The position numbers and the translations under genes are program-made. A stretch of 44,899 nucleotides of DNA from the sequence record NC_012223.2; one strand, given 5' to 3'. This document shows, piece after piece, positions 2,025 to 44,899 of the stretch. Below the pieces are notes generated by a model that had not been told where the DNA came from, ran no database searches, and saw only the letters and a program-made list of their open reading frames with translations. The DNA is from Escherichia phage SSL-2009a. The stretch's first letter is position 1; each line of letters begins with the position of its first letter.

Positions 2025-3545
2025 ATGACCGTTAACGTTGACAACCAGCACCCGCTCTATGCGCGCATCGCGCCAGAGTGGAAAATGATCCGTGACTGCG
2101 TAGCAGGGGAGCGCGCCGTGAAGGCGTGCGGACCATTGTACCTGCCACACCCAGCCAGCGGCGACACCACCGACCCGAAATCGCGTGCGCGCTATAAGGC
2201 ATATAAGCAACGTGCTGTCTTCCTGAACGCCACCGCCCGCACACTGAATGCCCTGTTAGGCGTGGCCTTCGCCAAACCGGTGAGTATGGACCTTTCCGGG
2301 GCAATGGCGGACCTGATTGATGACGTAGACGGCAGCGGGATGCCGCTGGCGCAACTCCTGCGCGGCGCTATGTCGGAAGTGCTGCAATCGGGGCGCGCTG
2401 GCTTTATGGTGGACTACGACCGCCAGGCGCATTTTGATGAACTGGGTAACGTAGTGCCGCAGACAGCCGCTGAGATGGCGTCACACCGCCCGCTCATCCG
2501 CCTGTATACGGCTGAACAGATCATCAACTGGCGGCAGACACACGGCGTCGACACGCTAATCGTGCTGAAGGAGACGGACGAAATCAGCACCGAAGACCCG
2601 GACGACTTCGCAAACCACGAAGTTACAATCTGGACCGAGCTTCGCATGATTAACGGTGCGGCACACGCCCGCCGCTGGTTTTACAACGCGGACACGTCCG
2701 AGGTGCAAATGGACTTGCCGCGGGGATTCACCCGCACCGACCTTGTACCACTGGTGGATGCCGCCGGTAACGCGCTTACGCAACTGCCTTTCTGTTGGTG
2801 TGGCGCGGTGGATAACAATGCGACACCAGATGCCGCACCGCTGGCGGATATCGCGTCCATCAACATTAAGCACTACAACGCCGAAGCTGACGTCGCAGAG
2901 ATTGCGCACATCGTAGGTCAACCTACCCTAGTTGCGACCGGCTTGACCCAATCATGGGCTGATAAAAACCTGAAGGGCGGCATCGCGCTCGGGGCAACTA
3001 AAGGCGTCATCCTGGGTCAGAACATGGACGCTAAACTGCTTCAGGCGGAGGAGCGAAACCTGTCAGTTGCGCTGTGTGAGCGACGCGAATTGCAAATGGC
3101 TAAACTGGGCGCGGCCCTGGTCGAGAAGGGGACCGCACCTAAGACGGCAACTGAAGCGGCCTACGATGCGCAGACTGATAACAGTATCCTGTCACTTATT
3201 GCCGGTAACGTTGAGAAGGCTTTCAACCGTGCGCTGCAAATCGTCAAGCTGTTCACGGGGGACACCGCAGATCAACGTGTAACGCTGAATAAGTTCTACA
3301 CCGAGATCACGGTGGATGCACAGCTTATGACCGCGATGATGGCGGGTGTGCAGACCGGTACGGTCCGTCTGGCGGACTTTATCAAGTGGATGATGGCCCA
3401 GGGCGTTATCGATGACTCGCAAACCGTCGAGCAGGTGGAAGACGAACTGCGAAATCAGAATCCATTGCCTCAAATGTCCCCGGATGCGGTAGAATCTACC
3501 GAAGAAGACCCGGACAAGGTAGCGGACAATGGCGAAGACAATTAA
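2025..3545 (+). CDS. portal protein
   Basis: 506 aa ORF after terL, SD AGGAAA 6 nt before ATG, acidic C-terminus; canonical gene order. Confidence 0.75.
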   Translation: MTVNVDNQHPLYARIAPEWKMIRDCVAGERAVKACGPLYLPHPASGDTTDPKSRARYKAYKQRAVFLNATARTLNALLGVAFAKPVSMDLSGAMADLIDDVDGSGMPLAQLLRGAMSEVLQSGRAGFMVDYDRQAHFDELGNVVPQTAAEMASHRPLIRLYTAEQIINWRQTHGVDTLIVLKETDEISTEDPDDFANHEVTIWTELRMINGAAHARRWFYNADTSEVQMDLPRGFTRTDLVPLVDAAGNALTQLPFCWCGAVDNNATPDAAPLADIASINIKHYNAEADVAEIAHIVGQPTLVATGLTQSWADKNLKGGIALGATKGVILGQNMDAKLLQAEERNLSVALCERRELQMAKLGAALVEKGTAPKTATEAAYDAQTDNSILSLIAGNVEKAFNRALQIVKLFTGDTADQRVTLNKFYTEITVDAQLMTAMMAGVQTGTVRLADFIKWMMAQGVIDDSQTVEQVEDELRNQNPLPQMSPDAVESTEEDPDKVADNGEDN

Positions 3546-4632
3546 TCAATATATGGCGGATCGAATGATTCGCCGTCACATCTTCACCCAGCGCCTGAGC
3601 AATGACCAGGCGCGAAGGGTGCTGTCCATGTGGGAGAAGTTCCGGCCCACATTACTGGGAAAGCTGACCGAGTTGCTTGATGGCAAATCGTCAATGAATA
3701 ACAGGGCACTTTCCACCCTGCTAACGCAAATCGACAAGACCGTTAAATCAGAATTGCGCACCGAGTTTAAGGCGTTGGCTGAAAGCCTTCAGGAGTTCGC
3801 CGACACGGAGGCTGATTATCTCACCGACACATTAACGGCAGCGATCCGGCCGGTGGTCGCCGTACCTGCGATCGAGGTGGTGGGCGTGGTGACAGGTGCG
3901 CAGATCGCAGCGACGGCAATGAAAAACCCGTTTCAGGGCAATACCCTGATGCAATGGCCCGATTCACTTTCAGAATGGACCAGGACGCAGATCGGCAATC
4001 AGGTGCGCGCGGGATTCATCCAGGGTAAGCCGACTATGGAAATTTTAGCGGACGTGAGGCGCGCGCTCGGCGGTCGTAGTGCGCAAGCTATCTCAAGCGT
4101 TGTTAAGTCCGCAGTCAACCACTATGCGGCGACCGCCCGCGAACTAATGGTAAAAGCAAATGACGATATTCTCGAAGGGCGCCAGTGGTTATCTACATTG
4201 GACACGCATACTTCTCCCATGTGCCAGCTACGCGATCGCCTGTTTTATCCAGTTGATGTTACTCCCGACACCAAAGGAAAGCGCGGCGGGAAAGTGGTGG
4301 CTGGATCACAATATGGCGCTGGTCCGGGCAAGCTGCATTATTGCTGCCGGTCTACGGAGACGTGGAAGGTTAAAGGCATGGAAGATTGGCCCAGTGGTAA
4401 GCGTCCGGCACTGAAGGCTGACGCTGGTCGATTGCTGAGTGAGCAGGTCGACGCGCAGACTGATTTCTTCTCATGGGTGCAGCGCCAGCCGCGCCATATC
4501 CTGGAAGAATTATACGGAGTGCAACGCGCCGACCAGATTATGCGCGGCGTGAAAGTGCCGAAGATGTTCACCGATTCAGGCGAACTAATGACTATTGCGC
4601 AGCTTAAAAACCGGGGGTTATGGCGTGATTAA
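3529..4632 (+). CDS. head morphogenesis protein (Mu F-like / SPP1 gp7-like minor head protein)
   Basis: 367 aa ORF overlapping the portal stop; position after portal; size and composition typical of F-like proteins. Confidence 0.6.
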   Translation: MAKTINQYMADRMIRRHIFTQRLSNDQARRVLSMWEKFRPTLLGKLTELLDGKSSMNNRALSTLLTQIDKTVKSELRTEFKALAESLQEFADTEADYLTDTLTAAIRPVVAVPAIEVVGVVTGAQIAATAMKNPFQGNTLMQWPDSLSEWTRTQIGNQVRAGFIQGKPTMEILADVRRALGGRSAQAISSVVKSAVNHYAATARELMVKANDDILEGRQWLSTLDTHTSPMCQLRDRLFYPVDVTPDTKGKRGGKVVAGSQYGAGPGKLHYCCRSTETWKVKGMEDWPSGKRPALKADAGRLLSEQVDAQTDFFSWVQRQPRHILEELYGVQRADQIMRGVKVPKMFTDSGELMTIAQLKNRGLWRD

Positions 4633-4954
4633 GTATGCGGCTATTGGACTGGTTATAGGTCTGGCGGTAGGATTCTGGCTTGGAGACTCCTATCGCGCTG
4701 GCGTAGTGGCTGAGGCGGCGCAAGAAGCGCAAGCCGAAGCCCAACGGCAGCAAACTAAAGTAATTGAGCGCTCCGTGCAGGCAGAACAAGCCCGCGACGT
4801 GGAATACCGGACTATCACAAAAGAGGTTGTAAAATATGTTACGCGCCCTAACCGCCCTGATTGTAGTTTTGACGCTGAGCGCGTGCGGATCAAGCAGCGT
4901 GCCGTTGATGCCGCTAACGGAGTCGGCACTGCGACCGCCGTGCAAGTTCGATAA
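4595..4954 (+). CDS. i-spanin (Rz-like), start uncertain (TTG 4595 or more likely GTG 4625)
   Basis: N-terminal TM segment YAAIGLVIGLAVGFWLG followed by charged coiled-coil-like periplasmic region; GTG 4625 preceded by GGGGG SD; contains the o-spanin ORF in the +1 frame. Confidence 0.6.
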   Translation: MRSLKTGGYGVIKYAAIGLVIGLAVGFWLGDSYRAGVVAEAAQEAQAEAQRQQTKVIERSVQAEQARDVEYRTITKEVVKYVTRPNRPDCSFDAERVRIKQRAVDAANGVGTATAVQVR

Positions 4955-5066
4955 CCCGTCTGCAGACCCCGACGAAGATTTGATGATTGACGTTAAAAAT
5001 ATGGAATGCGGGGCGAAGCTGAGGGCGCAGGTGTTGGAGTTGCAGCAAATAATTAAGGGGCCGTAA
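4836..5066 (+). CDS. o-spanin (Rz1-like outer membrane lipoprotein)
   Basis: 76 aa; signal peptide with lipobox LSAC-G, proline-rich mature part; SD AGAGG 9 nt before ATG 4836; overlaps the 3' part of the i-spanin gene in another frame (overlapped Rz/Rz1 architecture). Confidence 0.6.
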   Translation: MLRALTALIVVLTLSACGSSSVPLMPLTESALRPPCKFDNPSADPDEDLMIDVKNMECGAKLRAQVLELQQIIKGP

Positions 5067-5081
5067 TGGCCCCTTTTCGTT
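5057..5081 (+). terminator. rho-independent terminator (GGGGCC-gtaat-GGCCCC + TTTT)
   Basis: Perfect 6-bp GC stem, 5-nt loop, T-run; sits at the end of the o-spanin gene and at the convergent end of minus-strand gene 5080-5844. Confidence 0.6.
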
Positions 5082-5844
5082 AGCGCGGAATACCGCAAAT
5101 CTCGTTGAGAGTTTTCACATCCAGCGCCACCGCCGTGGATTTTTGCTTGTCCGGGTATGGTATGAATTGCTCAACTTCAGGCCATGCCTTAATCAGCTTC
5201 TTGTCAGTATTGTGTAGGTCCAGCACACCGGTAACGGTGAGTTTGAACGCGTCATACTTCGCACGCAACTCGCGACGTGCCTTGTCGTTGCGGTCCAGGC
5301 GCTTACAGAAGTCATGGTCCGCCGGGTAGTCTACGCGACCGCGTGGGAGATATATCGGCAGCGCTTTCCCTTCCTCGTCCACTTCGCACACTGACGCGAG
5401 CATAACTGTCTCGAACCCCGGAACGATATCGCCGAGATCAGGCGAGAGCTTATTCATATATTTCTCTTCCCAGTATCCGCGATGTACGCGGTATTGGCGA
5501 CCGTCACCGCTCAAGGACAAGGTGCGAACATTGCCGCCTGCGTTGATTTCAAAGGTGGCGTCATAGACGCTGCCGATACCCTTCGGGCGGTCGGAGTTAT
5601 AACTATACGTCGCCTTATTGGTGTATACGCTGACGCCGTACATCTGCGACTGGTCATCGCGGATTAACAGGATATGCTCGCGTAGCGCGGCGAATGTGCG
5701 AATGCCGTCCGGCATACAGTCCAGCGTGATTGCGTACGCCAGATCGCGTGAGTCCATCATGATTTGTTTGGCTTCGGTTGCGATTTCGTGGTCGCGCAGG
5801 ATGTTAGCCAGGATCTGATTTTTAATATCTTTCGTCAGTCTCAT
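5080..5844 (-). CDS. hypothetical protein (antisense accessory gene inside head module)
   Basis: 254 aa ORF, strong SD GAGGA 7 nt before ATG (5844); opposite strand to flanking structural genes; no motif recognised. Confidence 0.6.
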   Translation of the reverse strand: MRLTKDIKNQILANILRDHEIATEAKQIMMDSRDLAYAITLDCMPDGIRTFAALREHILLIRDDQSQMYGVSVYTNKATYSYNSDRPKGIGSVYDATFEINAGGNVRTLSLSGDGRQYRVHRGYWEEKYMNKLSPDLGDIVPGFETVMLASVCEVDEEGKALPIYLPRGRVDYPADHDFCKRLDRNDKARRELRAKYDAFKLTVTGVLDLHNTDKKLIKAWPEVEQFIPYPDKQKSTAVALDVKTLNEICGIPR

Positions 5845-5883
5845 TTTTGTGTCCTCATTATTGGGGCTTTCGCCCCGATTGGT

Positions 5884-6198
5884 TTAGTTAAATTTGATGT
5901 TGCCGCTGGTTGAGGTTAAGCGAGCACATACAGCTTCAACGGCATCGACGCACATGAAATCGTTAAAGGCTTCGACCAGGGCGTTTATGAAAGATGCCGG
6001 AACCAGGCCGCAAGCCGGATTATCGAATGTCGCGGAGTTGATCGCCGCTTTTGCCGCTTCAGAAGCATTCATGCTCTGGCACAGATTCAGCGCTTCCGCG
6101 TTACGCATTGCGTGAAAGGTAAAGGTATTCGCTACAGTAGCTTTATTGAAACGGGCCATTGCGGCGTCTACTGGAGTTGCTACGGTCATGTTAGTCAT
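5884..6198 (-). CDS. hypothetical protein (antisense accessory gene, first gene of two-gene unit)
   Basis: 104 aa from ATG at 6198 with SD AAGGA 7 nt upstream (six-frame ORF extends to 6249); cysteine-containing, alanine-rich; no motif recognised. Confidence 0.5.
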   Translation of the reverse strand: MTNMTVATPVDAAMARFNKATVANTFTFHAMRNAEALNLCQSMNASEAAKAAINSATFDNPACGLVPASFINALVEAFNDFMCVDAVEAVCARLTSTSGNIKFN

Positions 6199-9864: not shown

Positions 9865-10286
9865 TGAGCAATACTCTAATCCGCAAGGCGCTTAACCGCG
9901 TGGTAGAAGATTTATCGGTAAGCCTGAGCACCAGCCATCGACCGATCCTTGTTAACTGGGAGAACGTGCAGGGGGACCACGCAAACGGTAGTGGTGTCTA
10001 CCTGGAGCCGTACTTACTACCGGCACCGACCCAGTTTGTGGGCTTCCAGCAAAAGGGGAGAATCTATGCAGGCGTTTATCAGGTTGCCGTTGTGTTTCCC
10101 GCGGGTACTGGCACACAGTACGCGAGCGAACTGGCGGACGCCATCGCTACGTCGGATAAGTGGCTGGCGGTAAAGATTTCCGGCGCTGCATTCCAGCTTC
10201 AGGACGCGCCATACACCAGTTCGGTGATTGAAGACGTTGACCGCGCCCGCATCGTAGTTACAGTCCCCTACACCTGTTGCGCCTGA
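9864..10286 (+). CDS. tail terminator / tail completion protein (putative)
   Basis: 140 aa, start overlaps previous stop (TAATG); immediately upstream of major tail protein gene. Confidence 0.5.
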   Translation: MSNTLIRKALNRVVEDLSVSLSTSHRPILVNWENVQGDHANGSGVYLEPYLLPAPTQFVGFQQKGRIYAGVYQVAVVFPAGTGTQYASELADAIATSDKWLAVKISGAAFQLQDAPYTSSVIEDVDRARIVVTVPYTCCA

Positions 10287-10347
10287 TTTGGCGCTATTCT
10301 GCGCGTGCTGTATCATTGAACCGTATATCTAAACAGGAGTGTTCATT

Positions 10348-11073
10348 ATGGGTTATCAACTTCCTAACGGGTCCAGCGTCCAGATTGGGTCCGTACTGGG
10401 CAACGGCATCGCTGTTACGGCAGCTACCAACGCCGCCGCGTCGATCTCTGATCTTACGAAAGGTTGCGTTATCACCTGCGCGGCTTCTCATGGCCTGCAA
10501 GTTGGTGACGTGGTTATGTTCACTAAAACCCCGTGGGTCCGTGCGCTGAACCGCGCGTTCATCGTGGGTAAAGTGGCGACTAACGACGTTACACTGGCGC
10601 GCTTCGACACCTCGGACGTCACCAAATATCCTGCCGGTGCTTTTGGGGCGGGAACCCCAGGCGAAGTGGTGAAAGTGTCGAATTTTATCGACTTCCCGTA
10701 TATCACTAACGTTGCCGTGTCGGGTGGCGACCAGCAGACCACCACCTTCCAGCCGTTGCAGGTGAATACTGCGATCAGTCTGAATACCACGAAAAACCCG
10801 TTGGTCCAGACTTACACGTTCACCCACGACGAAGAAGACCCGATCCGCCCGATTCTGGAAGACCTGGACGACACACAGAAAACCACTGTGATTAAGTTCA
10901 CTAACCCGGCAGCGGCAAGCGGCAAAGGTGAGATCCGCATTTACCCGGCTAAGGTGTCTTTCCAGAAGATTCCATCGGCTGAAGTAAACAACGTGGAGAC
11001 GGTGGAGTCCACCCTCACTATGCAGTCCGATATGGTTATTTACCGTAAGGACCTGGTTGAAGCGCTGTCGTAA
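10348..11073 (+). CDS. major tail protein
   Basis: 241 aa from ATG 10348 (SD AGGAG 9 nt upstream); directly precedes the G/G-T chaperone and tape measure genes; followed by terminator. Confidence 0.65.
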   Translation: MGYQLPNGSSVQIGSVLGNGIAVTAATNAAASISDLTKGCVITCAASHGLQVGDVVMFTKTPWVRALNRAFIVGKVATNDVTLARFDTSDVTKYPAGAFGAGTPGEVVKVSNFIDFPYITNVAVSGGDQQTTTFQPLQVNTAISLNTTKNPLVQTYTFTHDEEDPIRPILEDLDDTQKTTVIKFTNPAAASGKGEIRIYPAKVSFQKIPSAEVNNVETVESTLTMQSDMVIYRKDLVEALS

Positions 11074-22047: not shown

Positions 22048-22063
22048 AGCCCCTTCCGGGGCT
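22048..22063. terminator. hairpin between convergent genes (AGCCCC-ttcc-GGGGCT)
   Basis: Perfect 6-bp stem between the end of 21375-22046 (+) and the stop of the lipoprotein gene (-); T-runs are weak on both sides. Confidence 0.4.
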
Positions 22064-22281
22064 TATTCGCAGGTGGTGCTTTTGAAGTGGTCGACCGACA
22101 CATACTGGAAGTTGAACGGGTAGCCCGCCCGCAACATTTTATGCCCGCTAAAATCGGCAACACCGAACACCGGGACCGAGTATTCCATGCCGCTATTAAC
22201 ATATGTCGCGTCGCAGACTTTAGTCGGCATGTTGGCACAACCCGACAAAAGAACCGCACAAATCATAATTAAAGTTTTCAT
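22063..22281 (-). CDS. lipoprotein, candidate receptor-blocking superinfection-exclusion protein (Cor/Llp-like by context)
   Basis: 72 aa from ATG 22281 (SD AGGGGA); signal peptide with lipobox LLSGC; antisense gene directly upstream of the tail fiber gene. Confidence 0.55.
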   Translation of the reverse strand: MKTLIMICAVLLSGCANMPTKVCDATYVNSGMEYSVPVFGVADFSGHKMLRAGYPFNFQYVSVDHFKSTTCE

Positions 22282-41826: not shown

Positions 41827-41862
41827 AGTCCCAGTGAGCTAAAACTTACTGGGACTTTTTTA
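41827..41862 (+). terminator. strong intrinsic terminator abutting the holin start codon
   Basis: Perfect 9-bp stem AGTCCCAGT/ACTGGGACT with 11-nt loop, then TTTTTTA running directly into ATG 41862. Confidence 0.55.
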
Positions 41863-42152
41863 TGGATAAGCTAAACGAGTGGCTATTCGCCCTGGCATGT
41901 CTGGCGGGTGGCTTCGTAGGCGCACGCATTCATGGTGAGGCTACGAAGGGGCCGCTAAACTTCGTTTTGTATGTGGTAGTCGGCTTCCTGTGTGCCATAT
42001 TTGGCGCACCGGCTATTGCCGAGTGGGCTGGTTTGTCGGGTGAGCGCACTGTCGCCGGTTTGGGCTTCGTAACCGCAATCTTCTGGATGCCAATCGCCGA
42101 CCGGATCAGGGAGACTATTGCGTCGTTCCGACTTCCGGGGGGTGCAAAATGA
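41862..42152 (+). CDS. holin-like membrane protein
   Basis: 96 aa with about three hydrophobic helices; immediately upstream of a second membrane protein and the endolysin. Confidence 0.5.
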   Translation: MDKLNEWLFALACLAGGFVGARIHGEATKGPLNFVLYVVVGFLCAIFGAPAIAEWAGLSGERTVAGLGFVTAIFWMPIADRIRETIASFRLPGGAK

Positions 42153-42394
42153 TTATCTCCGTCCTGTTGTTTGTTATCATCGGGGCTTCGTCCCTGTTTA
42201 ACGTGTATGCGCCGTCCGTCCAGGATGGCATTTTCGGTCGGGTGCTGTATCTGCTAACGGCAATGATCTGTATTATCGGACTGTTGCAAACAGGAGACGT
42301 ATCTGATACCACCTGGACCGCGTTAATCTGGCTGTTTGCATTGCGCACCCTGCGTAATGCTGTTTTGAATGGGGTAAAACATGCGATTCAGTGA
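42149..42394 (+). CDS. holin/antiholin-like membrane protein
   Basis: 81 aa, two to three TM helices; ATGA overlap upstream, overlaps endolysin start. Confidence 0.45.
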   Translation: MIISVLLFVIIGASSLFNVYAPSVQDGIFGRVLYLLTAMICIIGLLQTGDVSDTTWTALIWLFALRTLRNAVLNGVKHAIQ

Positions 42395-42872
42395 CAACGG
42401 TCTAAGATTCACGGCAGCATGGGAGGCTTTCAGCCCGGTGCCGTATTTCGCGACCAAGAAAGAGCAGGCCCGCGGCCTGTACACCTGGGGTTATGGTCAT
42501 ACCGGCACTAACCCGCCGCGAAGCATTACCCGAGAGGAAGCGCTGGCGCTACTTAAGCGCGATGTGGCGTATGCCGAGGACTGGGTTAACAAATACGCAC
42601 ATCCGAGCATTAACCAGGCGCAATTCGACGCGCTGGTGGATCTGGTAATCAATGCCGGTCCTGGTCCGATCGTACCGGATGACGTCGCGAATGATTTCGA
42701 TGATGCGGTGCGACTGGGCAACTGGGCGAAGGTCCGTGCTACGCTGCCGCTGTTCCGCAAGCAAGGCGGGGAAGTGCTTAAGGGTCTGGTACGCCGTGCA
42801 ATCGGCAGACAGGCGTTGTTTGATGGTAAGCAGTGGGACGTTGCCGAGCGAATCGGTCGTAACGCTGCATAA
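42381..42872 (+). CDS. endolysin (phage lysozyme, T4-lysozyme-like fold)
   Basis: 163 aa; conserved Glu (WEAF) followed by GLYTWGYGHTG, resembling the E...GYYTIGIGH signature of T4-type lysozymes. Confidence 0.65.
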   Translation: MRFSDNGLRFTAAWEAFSPVPYFATKKEQARGLYTWGYGHTGTNPPRSITREEALALLKRDVAYAEDWVNKYAHPSINQAQFDALVDLVINAGPGPIVPDDVANDFDDAVRLGNWAKVRATLPLFRKQGGEVLKGLVRRAIGRQALFDGKQWDVAERIGRNAA

Positions 42873-42888
42873 TACGAGGTGACACAAT

Positions 42889-43290
42889 ATGTTAGATTCG
42901 ATCTTGCGACGTAAAGAACGCATTATCAAGACACTGCCCGCAGTGCAGAACCCAGAAGCGCGCCGCATCCTGGCGGGGGATATGAATGTATCAGGCGTCT
43001 TTGACAAGGCCGTGCCTGAAGGGACGCCGGTGGCTAGCGCTACCGTCACCATCACGCCAGCTACCGCCGCAGTTGGTGAGACAGCCGCCGCGACTGTTGC
43101 CATCCTGCCATCCGGAGCGACCAACAAGACCGGGTCGTGGGTGTCGGCTAACCCTAACCGCGCCTCAATCAATCCGACTACCGGAGAAATCACAGCGAAA
43201 GCAGCGGGTAACGTCCGCATCGTTTGGGTGGCGTCCGACGGTAGCGGGGTGCAGGCTGACGCAGGCTTCACAGTAACGGCAGCCGCATAA
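42889..43290 (+). CDS. Ig-like (Big_2-type) domain protein
   Basis: 133 aa; C-terminal region rich in T/A/V/G (ATVTITPATAAVGETAAATVAILPSGATNKTG...GNVRIVWVASDG); SD GAGGTGA. Confidence 0.45.
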   Translation: MLDSILRRKERIIKTLPAVQNPEARRILAGDMNVSGVFDKAVPEGTPVASATVTITPATAAVGETAAATVAILPSGATNKTGSWVSANPNRASINPTTGEITAKAAGNVRIVWVASDGSGVQADAGFTVTAAA

Positions 43291-43297
43291 ACCAACA

Positions 43298-43324
43298 AGC
43301 CCGGATAATACCGGGCTTTTTATT
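43298..43324 (+). terminator. rho-independent terminator after Ig-like gene
   Basis: GCCCGG-ataata-CCGGGC followed by TTTTTATT. Confidence 0.6.
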
Positions 43325-43702: not shown

Positions 43703-44845
43703 ATGCACCCGCAAACTAAAATTACCGATGAGCAATTGATCGCCGAAATTCAGGCAGGGACTACGGTTAAAGAGATTGCGAAGAAATACGGCATTGCACT
43801 TCGTAACGTCTACATGCGCAAAGCCCGCCTGTCGAAAAAGGGGATTGGTCATGGCAATGACGCCGTGATCCGTAAGCGCGTTGCCGATGGCTTTGGGGTT
43901 AAGCGCGTATCGGCCCTGGTGCGCGGCAATGGCGAAGAGGTCATGTCGTGGGTCATCACTGAGCAGGACAAGGAGCGCCAACTCGAAGCCATGCGCGCTG
44001 TTGTCGAGGGTATGAACAGCGAAATCACACCGGCAGCGCCCGTAAACGCCACGCCAGTCCCGATTCAGGCGCTCGACTTGCTCAACCTGTACACAGTGTC
44101 CGACTTCCACCTGGGTATGCTGGCGTGGGGCGAGGAGACTGGCGAAGACTGGGATATGGCGATTGCTGAAGACCTGTTCTACCGCTGGTTTGTCGAAGCC
44201 TTCGCCCGCGCACCGGACGCAGGCACTGCCGTTATCAATATCCTCGGTGATATGGCCCACTTTGATAGCCTCGACGCCGTCACACCAGCAAGCGGTCACG
44301 TACTGGACGCCGACACACGATACCAGAAGTTGGTCCGCTATATGATTCGCATGGTGCGCAACGTCGTAGACCTGGCGCTGCAAAAACACCACAAAGTCAA
44401 ACTGCTAATCGTCCAGGGTAATCATGACGAATCGGGTATGATTTGGCTTGCTGAGATGTTCAATACCCTGTATGAGAACGAGCCACGCGTCGATGTGGAC
44501 ACGTCCCCGGACGTCTACAAAATGGTGCAGCACGGTAAGACCACGCTGTTTTTCCATCACGGGCACAAAGCGCGATTCGATGCTATCGAGCAGGTTATGA
44601 TCGCTAAATTCAGACAGGCGTTCGGGTCGAGCGAATACAGCTACGCGCACGTAGGTCATTTGCACCACCAGAAGATTGTCGAGTCTCGCAACATGATTGT
44701 TGAACAGCACCGGACGCTCGCAGCGAAAGACGCCTACGCCAGTCGTGGCGGTTGGATGTCCGGTCGCAGCGCAAACGTCATCACCTACAGCGCCAACTAC
44801 GGCGAAGTAGCGCGCTTAACCATTAGCCCAGAAATGTTGAAGTAA
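43703..44845 (+). CDS. metallophosphoesterase (calcineurin-like) with N-terminal HTH domain
   Basis: 380 aa; N-terminal HTH-like TVKEIAKKYGIALRNVY; C-terminal phosphoesterase motifs GDMAHFD, GNHDE, GHKARFD, GHLHH. Confidence 0.65.
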   Translation: MHPQTKITDEQLIAEIQAGTTVKEIAKKYGIALRNVYMRKARLSKKGIGHGNDAVIRKRVADGFGVKRVSALVRGNGEEVMSWVITEQDKERQLEAMRAVVEGMNSEITPAAPVNATPVPIQALDLLNLYTVSDFHLGMLAWGEETGEDWDMAIAEDLFYRWFVEAFARAPDAGTAVINILGDMAHFDSLDAVTPASGHVLDADTRYQKLVRYMIRMVRNVVDLALQKHHKVKLLIVQGNHDESGMIWLAEMFNTLYENEPRVDVDTSPDVYKMVQHGKTTLFFHHGHKARFDAIEQVMIAKFRQAFGSSEYSYAHVGHLHHQKIVESRNMIVEQHRTLAAKDAYASRGGWMSGRSANVITYSANYGEVARLTISPEMLK

Positions 44846-44861
44846 CGGCGACCCGTAACCC

Positions 44862-44891
44862 GCCCAGCCTGCCGATTTGGTGGGCTTTTTT
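44862..44891 (+). terminator. weak terminator-like hairpin with T-run at window end
   Basis: Short stem GCCCA/TGGGC followed by TTTTTT after the phosphoesterase stop. Confidence 0.3.
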
Positions 44892-44899
44892 GTGCCTGT

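Follow-up and report, generated by a model that had tools for sequence, protein, structure and literature searches.

A probable spanin gene pair of overlapped architecture in the head gene module of Escherichia phage SSL-2009a, apart from the holin and endolysin genes

Directly after the head morphogenesis gene of Escherichia phage SSL-2009a (NC_012223.2; the whole 44,899-nucleotide stretch of DNA that was analysed is referred to as the window) lie two overlapping genes, at 4625-4954 and 4836-5066 on the plus strand, which very probably encode a two-component spanin, i.e., an inner-membrane subunit (i-spanin) together with a lipoprotein subunit of the outer membrane (o-spanin). We base this identification on matches to spanin families of the PHROG database, on the sequence features of both products, and on homologues that are encoded directly after a holin-holin-endolysin cluster in other genomes. 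The window lacks the classical contiguous holin-endolysin-spanin cassette, as the spanin genes do not adjoin the endolysin gene. For the genus Dhillonvirus, both the pair and its separation from the remaining lysis genes have already been catalogued. Kongari et al. 2018 (PMC6139136) assigned the phages EP23, HK578, JL1, SSL-2009a, and SO-1 to the overlapped "Jersey" families of i- and o-spanins, along with Jersey-like and K1G-like phages. This "Jersey" family (Jersey, SETP3, K1G/K1H, EP23, HK578, JL1, SSL-2009a, and SO-1) is equivalent to phrog_2536 together with phrog_5672/1267, and SSL-2009a is a member with no substantive difference from the others.

The window is the complete genome of a Dhillonvirus, i.e., an HK578/EP23-like coliphage. 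Positions 3500-5900 matched 156 phage records at 80-97% identity, nearly all of them Escherichia or Shigella phages of this genus, including EP23, HK578-like phages, YD-2008.s, B2, and BASEL phages. Shigella phage EP23 (NC_016566) has the same gene order and coordinates as the window, with terS starting at 56, and the IMG/VR contig UViG_643677414_000001 is identical to the window in every gene tested. A 421-nucleotide (nt) probe in which the end of the window was joined to its start aligned without a break in at least 94 relatives with records that begin at other positions, and the genome is therefore closed, with no unsequenced remainder.

Two overlapping genes under selection in both frames

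An initial annotation of the window had proposed an overlapping spanin pair at 4595-5066, and both open reading frames (ORFs) do exist there, match PHROG spanin families, and evolve under purifying selection. The start of the first gene had to be moved. The longest form of the i-spanin ORF runs from 4595 to 4954 on the plus strand, with the TTG at 4595 as its first possible start, while the better start is the GTG at 4625, giving a product of 109 amino acids (aa). This choice follows from the GGGGG Shine-Dalgarno sequence 8 nt upstream of the GTG, from the overlap of 8 nt between the stop of the upstream head morphogenesis gene and the i-spanin start (at a conserved junction, GTGATTAA), from the conservation of both the GTG and its Shine-Dalgarno sequence in 16 of 16 Dhillonvirus loci, and from the homologues in Jerseyvirus, Kagunavirus, and lambdoid-like contigs, all of which start within about one residue of the equivalent of GTG 4625. 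In contrast, the TTG at 4595 has no Shine-Dalgarno sequence, the starts of homologues coincide with GTG 4625, and so do those curated in the literature. The supplement of Kongari et al. 2018 (PMC6139136) lists EP23 as "ovl" with genes at 4624-4954 and 4835-5066, an overlap of 119, and frame +1, and gives a start of MIKYAAIG... with a GGGGG Shine-Dalgarno sequence and products of 109 and 76 aa, the start being curated for EP23 and HK578. The initial left end thus holds for the ORF, though not for the gene.

The o-spanin gene (4836-5066, plus strand, 76 aa) begins 211 nt after the i-spanin start, which places it in the +1 frame relative to the i-spanin gene. The two genes share 119 nt of dual-coding sequence (4836-4954, plus strand) in which both frames are constrained, and since the o-spanin ORF extends 112 nt past the i-spanin stop, the architecture is "overlapped" rather than "embedded." It was kept in all 16 Dhillonvirus loci examined. 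In some relatives, the i-spanin stop comes 21 nt earlier, so that the product has 102 aa and the overlap 98 nt.

Both ORFs are real coding sequences under purifying selection. For 16 distinct Dhillonvirus sequences covering the region, we determined the ratio of nonsynonymous to synonymous changes (pN/pS), the counts being pairwise and so descriptive rather than independent. For the part that is i-spanin only, pN/pS was 0.17 in its own frame vs. 1.2 and 2.1 in the other two frames, and for the part that is o-spanin only, it was 0.13 in its own frame vs. 4.4 and 3.9. Within the overlap, the values were 0.47 in the i-spanin frame and 0.57 in the o-spanin frame, vs. 3.97 in the third frame. As a separate observation, the spanin region occurs as two alleles, with an i-spanin of either 109 or 102 aa, and the spanins are 74-84% identical at the amino acid level to those of five relatives (L004, L012, L016, L017, and L018) in which the head morphogenesis and scaffold proteins are 95-98% identical. 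This higher divergence of the spanins suggests cassette exchange or faster evolution.

The i-spanin is predicted to be a type II inner-membrane protein with a single N-terminal transmembrane domain. Its residues 1-19 are hydrophobic (Kyte-Doolittle mean 1.9), with Lys3 preceding the segment and a transmembrane domain at approximately residues 2-19, and the membrane anchor of the initial annotation is thereby borne out. The 88-aa domain that follows contains 31% charged residues and one cysteine, Cys80, which is invariant in an alignment of eight i-spanin sequences, as is a V-KY--P motif. An AlphaFold2 model built from this shallow eight-sequence alignment has helices at residues 3-72 and 84-98 joined by a linker at 73-83. 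This helix-linker-helix layout is the usual plan of an i-spanin, but its predicted local distance difference test score (pLDDT) is low, at 54.

The o-spanin is predicted to carry a signal peptidase II signal followed by a short, proline-rich mature domain. Its N-terminus, MLRALTALIVVLTLSA up to the predicted cleavage site and CGSS after it, comprises a basic n-region (Arg), an h-region, the lipobox LSAC, and a Gly at position +2. The mature part is 60 aa long and has seven prolines and three cysteines (Cys17, Cys36, and Cys58). The lipobox, the proline content, and the +1 frame match what was initially described. The ATG start, an AAGAGG Shine-Dalgarno sequence, the lipobox, the length, and the three cysteines were kept in 16 of 16 loci. 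In E. coli, lipoproteins without an Asp at position +2 are sorted to the outer membrane (the "+2 rule"). The Gly at this position would therefore send the o-spanin to the outer membrane. Periplasmic cysteines that could form intermolecular disulfides are present in both proteins (Cys80 of the i-spanin and the conserved Cys36 and Cys58 of the o-spanin). By eye, and without alignment, a PPC...D(E/A)DEDL...EC pattern of the o-spanin can also be found in the o-spanin ORFs of Jerseyvirus, Kagunavirus, and the lambdoid-like contig L022.

In profile searches, both proteins hit PHROGs labelled "Rz-like spanin," the i-spanin matching phrog_2536 at 3.2e-36 and the o-spanin matching phrog_5672 at 2.5e-26 and phrog_1267 at 2.4e-11. 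The two proteins are 94-98% identical to those of EP23 and HK578, both of which are listed members of the "Jersey" family. RefSeq annotates two "Rz-like spanin" genes at the equivalent position of EP23, and the BASEL phage Oekolampad is annotated there with an i-spanin and a full 231-nt o-spanin gene. Several GenBank and RefSeq records omit or shorten the o-spanin. One of these is the RefSeq record of EP23, in which the o-spanin is called at 4908-5066 from an internal start, yielding 52 aa without the signal peptide. The phrog_5672 profile has 47 positions and covers only residues 32-76 of the o-spanin; it appears to have been built on shortened calls like that in EP23.

Independent support for a lysis role comes from the IMG/VR contig L022, which encodes proteins of phrog_2536 (8e-43) and phrog_5672 (1.4e-19) in the overlapped +1 arrangement, 39% (i-spanin) and 34% (o-spanin) identical to those of the window. 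There, the pair occupies the canonical cassette slot, 3' of two holin genes and an endolysin gene and 5' of the terminase genes. Another relative, L023, has at 9941-10444 a 167-aa i-spanin that shares the N-terminal half and a TITKEVVKY motif (phrog_2536, 7.6e-13), and an ORF with a lipobox (LSSGC; approximately 10209-10409) lies wholly embedded in its +1 frame. The L023 spanin genes are located 1 kb 3' of an endolysin gene, with an HNH gene in between. Mixed embedded and overlapped architecture within one family was reported as not found by Kongari et al. 2018 (PMC6139136); L023 is an embedded relative.

Position apart from the holin and endolysin genes

The gene directly 5' of the spanin pair, at 3529-4632 on the plus strand, is a head morphogenesis gene, as was initially proposed, and encodes a MuF/SPP1 gp7-like protein (phrog_241, 1.6e-115). 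The lysis genes proper lie at 41862-42872, likewise as proposed, and on the plus strand: holin 1 (41862-42152; phrog_2359 holin, 8.5e-32), a second holin or antiholin candidate (42149-42394; phrog_2508 holin, 3.6e-27), and an endolysin of the phage lysozyme type (42381-42872; PF00959, 5.9e-20; phrog_7, 4.7e-35). The endolysin stop and the i-spanin start are 6,651 nt apart on the closed map, an interval that contains an immunoglobulin (Ig)-like gene, a phosphoesterase gene, terS, terL, the portal gene, and the MuF gene. In ten relatives, the distance ranged from 5.1 to 6.9 kb, depending on the presence of the Ig-like and phosphoesterase genes, and the split was common to all relatives examined, a point that the initial annotation had left to be checked. 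Not all relatives carry the Ig-like (Big_2) gene at 42889-43290 or the phosphoesterase gene (43703-44845), and the endolysin-terS distance accordingly varies by up to 1.8 kb.

No other spanin candidate was found in the genome, either in a lipoprotein-signal scan from every ATG, GTG, and TTG start in all six frames or in profile searches of the endolysin neighbour. The scan returned only two ORFs with a lipobox, the o-spanin and a lipoprotein at 22063-22281 on the minus strand. The latter was considered as an o-spanin or u-spanin and rejected, as it is the Cor lipoprotein (NF047972, 1.4e-16; phrog_1119, 6e-28) and has no C-terminal transmembrane domain; the gene for this superinfection-exclusion lipoprotein sits among the tail genes. 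The ORF next to the endolysin gene, 42889-43290, with an internal +1 ORF at 42986-43276, was considered as an embedded spanin pair and likewise rejected: the outer ORF encodes a Big_2 Ig-like structural protein (PF02368, 1.6e-9; phrog_215, 1.4e-24), and the inner ORF has neither a signal peptide nor a lipobox. The initial annotation had allowed for a separate spanin gene adjacent to the endolysin in an unsequenced remainder, a case that does not apply, since the genome is closed and the endolysin neighbour is this Ig-like protein.

Published descriptions of related phages already imply the split. In vB_EcoS_P78, the holins are genes 31-32, the endolysin is gene 33, and the spanin is gene 40, and in the Jerseyvirus SeF1, the spanins (of the same PHROGs) are gp009/010, the holins gp063/064, and the endolysin gp065. 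In the literature on Dhillonvirus, Jerseyvirus, and Guernseyvirinae, we found no paper that discusses the head-module position of the spanins as such, the annotations giving gene numbers only. A tblastn search with the i-spanin retrieved homologues in 665 phage records, of which 361 were from Salmonella phages, 237 from Escherichia phages, and 23 from Klebsiella phages, with others making up the rest. The Jerseyvirus S528, the Kagunavirus fPoEco01, and the Guernseyvirinae phage TS6 each have a spanin pair with the head morphogenesis gene on one side and the scaffold gene on the other. The holin and lysin genes of S528 are located 5' of the terminase genes; the loci examined in fPoEco01 and TS6 exclude the holin and endolysin genes. 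The spanins of Guernseyvirinae are only 35-43% identical to the SSL-2009a pair, and at least one gene (head decoration, HNH) stands between their MuF and spanin genes, whereas in SSL-2009a the MuF and i-spanin genes overlap directly.

The lambdoid-like IMG/VR contigs (L020-L022) share the PHROGs and the overlapped +1 architecture, with i-spanins 39-40% and o-spanins 34-36% identical to those of the window. They differ in that the pair is directly 3' of holin-holin-endolysin and 5' of the terminase genes, i.e., in the classical cassette position. The spanins of phage lambda, Rz and Rz1, resemble the SSL-2009a pair in pairing a type II inner-membrane protein with a lipoprotein of the outer membrane that is read from the same DNA in the +1 frame, in their periplasmic cysteines, and in their presumed role, the disruption of the outer membrane after wall degradation. 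In contrast to Rz/Rz1, the SSL-2009a genes are overlapped rather than embedded, are not adjacent to the equivalents of S and R, and encode proteins without detectable homology to the lambda proteins (no Pfam match at E<=0.1), the i-spanin having 109 aa vs. 153 aa for Rz (table in Kongari et al. 2018, PMC6139136). Phage T4 offers a precedent for the split, its spanin genes, PseT.3/PseT.2, being unlinked to the holin and endolysin genes and lying away from t and e (Kongari et al. 2018, PMC6139136, legend to Fig. 8). The T4 genes have "separated" architecture and belong to another family, and all T4 lysis genes are scattered, while in SSL-2009a the holin and endolysin genes remain clustered.

Predicted transcription signals

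A terminator-like hairpin on the plus strand at 5055-5078 (GGGGCC-GUAAU-GGCCCC plus a U-run) overlaps the o-spanin stop, with a fold of -18.2 kcal/mol (z -2.8) for 5055-5075. The automatic scan lists this stem on the minus strand only, and the plus-strand reading is from the sequence and the fold. The hairpin was present in 16 of 16 relatives, even where the downstream gene is a different one, and it is the predicted end of a unit running from terS to the spanins. In the window, the gene on its far side, at 5080-5844 on the minus strand, is convergent with this terminator, and its product is an Nmad5 protein (PF18757, nucleotide modification associated domain 5; 6.7e-62). The gene is missing from some relatives (L007, L013, and L016), so that a variable slot lies between the spanin and scaffold genes.

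A second terminator-like hairpin at 43297-43318 (plus strand; -16.5 kcal/mol, z -4.0), 3' of the Ig-like gene, is the predicted end of the holin-endolysin unit. A third, with U6, is located at 44866-44886 (plus strand; -12.3 kcal/mol, z -0.95), 3' of the phosphoesterase gene, and its stem is kept in relatives through wobble-to-Watson-Crick changes. Directly after this third hairpin and approximately 50 nt 5' of terS, a promoter-like site on the plus strand straddles the coordinate origin (44877-44899 plus 1-6), with a -35 element TTGGTG at 44877-44882, a 17-nt spacer ending in TGT, and a -10 element TATAAT at 1-6. The automatic scan missed this site because it crosses the window boundary. Nine relatives, the divergent L018 (TGATATAAT) among them, share the extended -10 element, TGnTATAAT.

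The most economical reading of these predicted signals is a terS-terL-portal-MuF-i-spanin-o-spanin unit apart from a holin-holin-endolysin-(Ig) unit, and the two transcription contexts that the initial annotation proposed are in this respect plausible. At the other end of the putative lysis unit, a 12-bp hairpin with U6 (41827-41856, plus strand; -24.1 kcal/mol, z -6.9) ends 5 nt 5' of the holin ATG at 41862. It was conserved in 10 of 10 relatives; in the divergent L018, changes in the stem compensate each other. Given this hairpin, no Shine-Dalgarno sequence is visible for the holin ATG, and the sequence TGATATAGT 5' of the hairpin resembles an extended -10 element. The hairpin region (41827-41861) could act as a terminator, as a site of anti-termination, or, by stabilising the 5' end, as a control of holin expression.

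Competing readings and what the arrangement would mean

Several points weigh against a spanin pair at the end of its own transcription unit. No experimentally tested member of this spanin family was found in the literature searched, and profile searches yielded no Pfam Rz/Rz1 or NCBIfam match for either protein, the i-spanin reaching only a sub-threshold DUF7904 (E 0.052) and the o-spanin no Pfam family. The proteins are thus analogues of lambda Rz/Rz1 rather than detectable homologues, and the initial description of the pair as "Rz/Rz1-type" stands by analogy of function and architecture, though not by family match. The AlphaFold2 model of the i-spanin is of low confidence, and the Pepcoil table of Kongari et al. 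2018 (PMC6139136) lists one coil (29-56) in the SSL-2009a i-spanin and none in the near-identical EP23 and HK578 proteins, so that the coiled coil that had been ascribed to the i-spanin is weakly supported. On the side of transcription, the signals are consensus predictions, and the hairpin at 44866-44886 folds no better than shuffled sequences.

This last point also favours the strongest competing reading, in which the genes do encode a spanin pair, but one carried on a single long late transcript that begins upstream of the holin gene and continues through the endolysin, phosphoesterase, terminase, portal, and MuF genes as far as the spanins, the hairpins being pause sites that are leaky or subject to anti-termination. 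We consider this somewhat unlikely. It is in keeping with all called genes from holin 1 (41862) round the origin to 5066 being on the plus strand, and the strong hairpin with U6, which in all relatives stops 5 nt short of the holin ATG, would require read-through if the holin is expressed from upstream. However, the hairpins with U-runs at 43297 and 44866 are conserved, as is the TGnTATAAT directly before terS, and the variable presence of the Ig-like and phosphoesterase genes suggests separate modules.

It is very improbable that the two genes have no part in lysis and instead, being expressed with the head genes, serve as a pair to modify the envelope or exclude superinfecting phages, or act as an accessory in morphogenesis. 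Their location in the head module and their translational coupling to the MuF gene would suit such a role, as would the presence in this phage of another small exclusion lipoprotein, Cor, and the lack of a published experimental test of the family leaves room for it, but homologues of both proteins occupy the canonical slot after the endolysin gene in the lambdoid-like contigs, the features of the i- and o-spanin classes (Summer 2007; Kongari et al. 2018, PMC6139136) are present, the coiled coil being weakly supported, and the genome holds no other spanin candidate even though the host is Gram-negative. That the +1 ORF is a chance open frame in and after a single membrane-protein gene has almost no probability left, for although GC-balanced phage DNA often contains short overlapping ORFs and several GenBank records leave the o-spanin unannotated or shortened, the idea is effectively refuted by the pN/pS of 0.13 in its own frame vs. 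approximately 4 off-frame, in addition to the signals conserved in 16 of 16 loci and the homologues in Jerseyvirus, Kagunavirus, and lambdoid contigs.

Returning to the two-component spanin, the genomes themselves show how the genes are built, their signals, the selection on both frames, the family to which each protein belongs, and the conserved synteny, and the mechanism is taken from the established spanin model, from which we infer localisation, complex formation, and function, just as transcript boundaries are drawn from the predicted signals. The i-spanin would be held in the inner membrane by an N-terminal anchor helix, with its largely helical, charged domain reaching into the periplasm, while the o-spanin would be exported, receive its lipid at Cys17, and go to the outer membrane as its Gly at +2 predicts. 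Complexes of the two spanning the periplasm would build up in late infection, restrained by the peptidoglycan mesh, and after holin triggering and breakdown of the wall by the endolysin, they would disrupt the outer membrane. Because restraint by the wall is physical, the spanins would need no regulatory link to the holin, and their genes can sit elsewhere, as in T4. This is consistent with their place at the end of the predicted terS-terL-portal-MuF-spanin unit, of which they would be the last genes, translationally coupled to the MuF gene and closed by the terminator.

Beyond correct annotation, the significance of the finding is small, and it opens no new question. For annotation, the i-spanin start should be placed at GTG 4625 and the full 76-aa o-spanin should be called, and Dhillonvirus genomes should not be scored as "spanin-less" merely because nothing follows the endolysin gene. 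The head-module spanins are also a tidy example of wall-restrained spanins that do not need co-regulation with the holin, and could serve as a natural test case. Tentatively, and with rather less than even confidence, we suggest that the pair forms the coupled, terminator-closed end of a separate terS-terL-portal-MuF operon with its own conserved promoter, and that this wiring is ancestral, selected, and common to Dhillonvirus and Guernseyvirinae, having arisen from the relocation of a cassette that is still beside the endolysin gene in lambdoid relatives. If this is true, the capacity for outer-membrane disruption in these phages would be set by the virion-assembly programme and not by the holin-endolysin unit.

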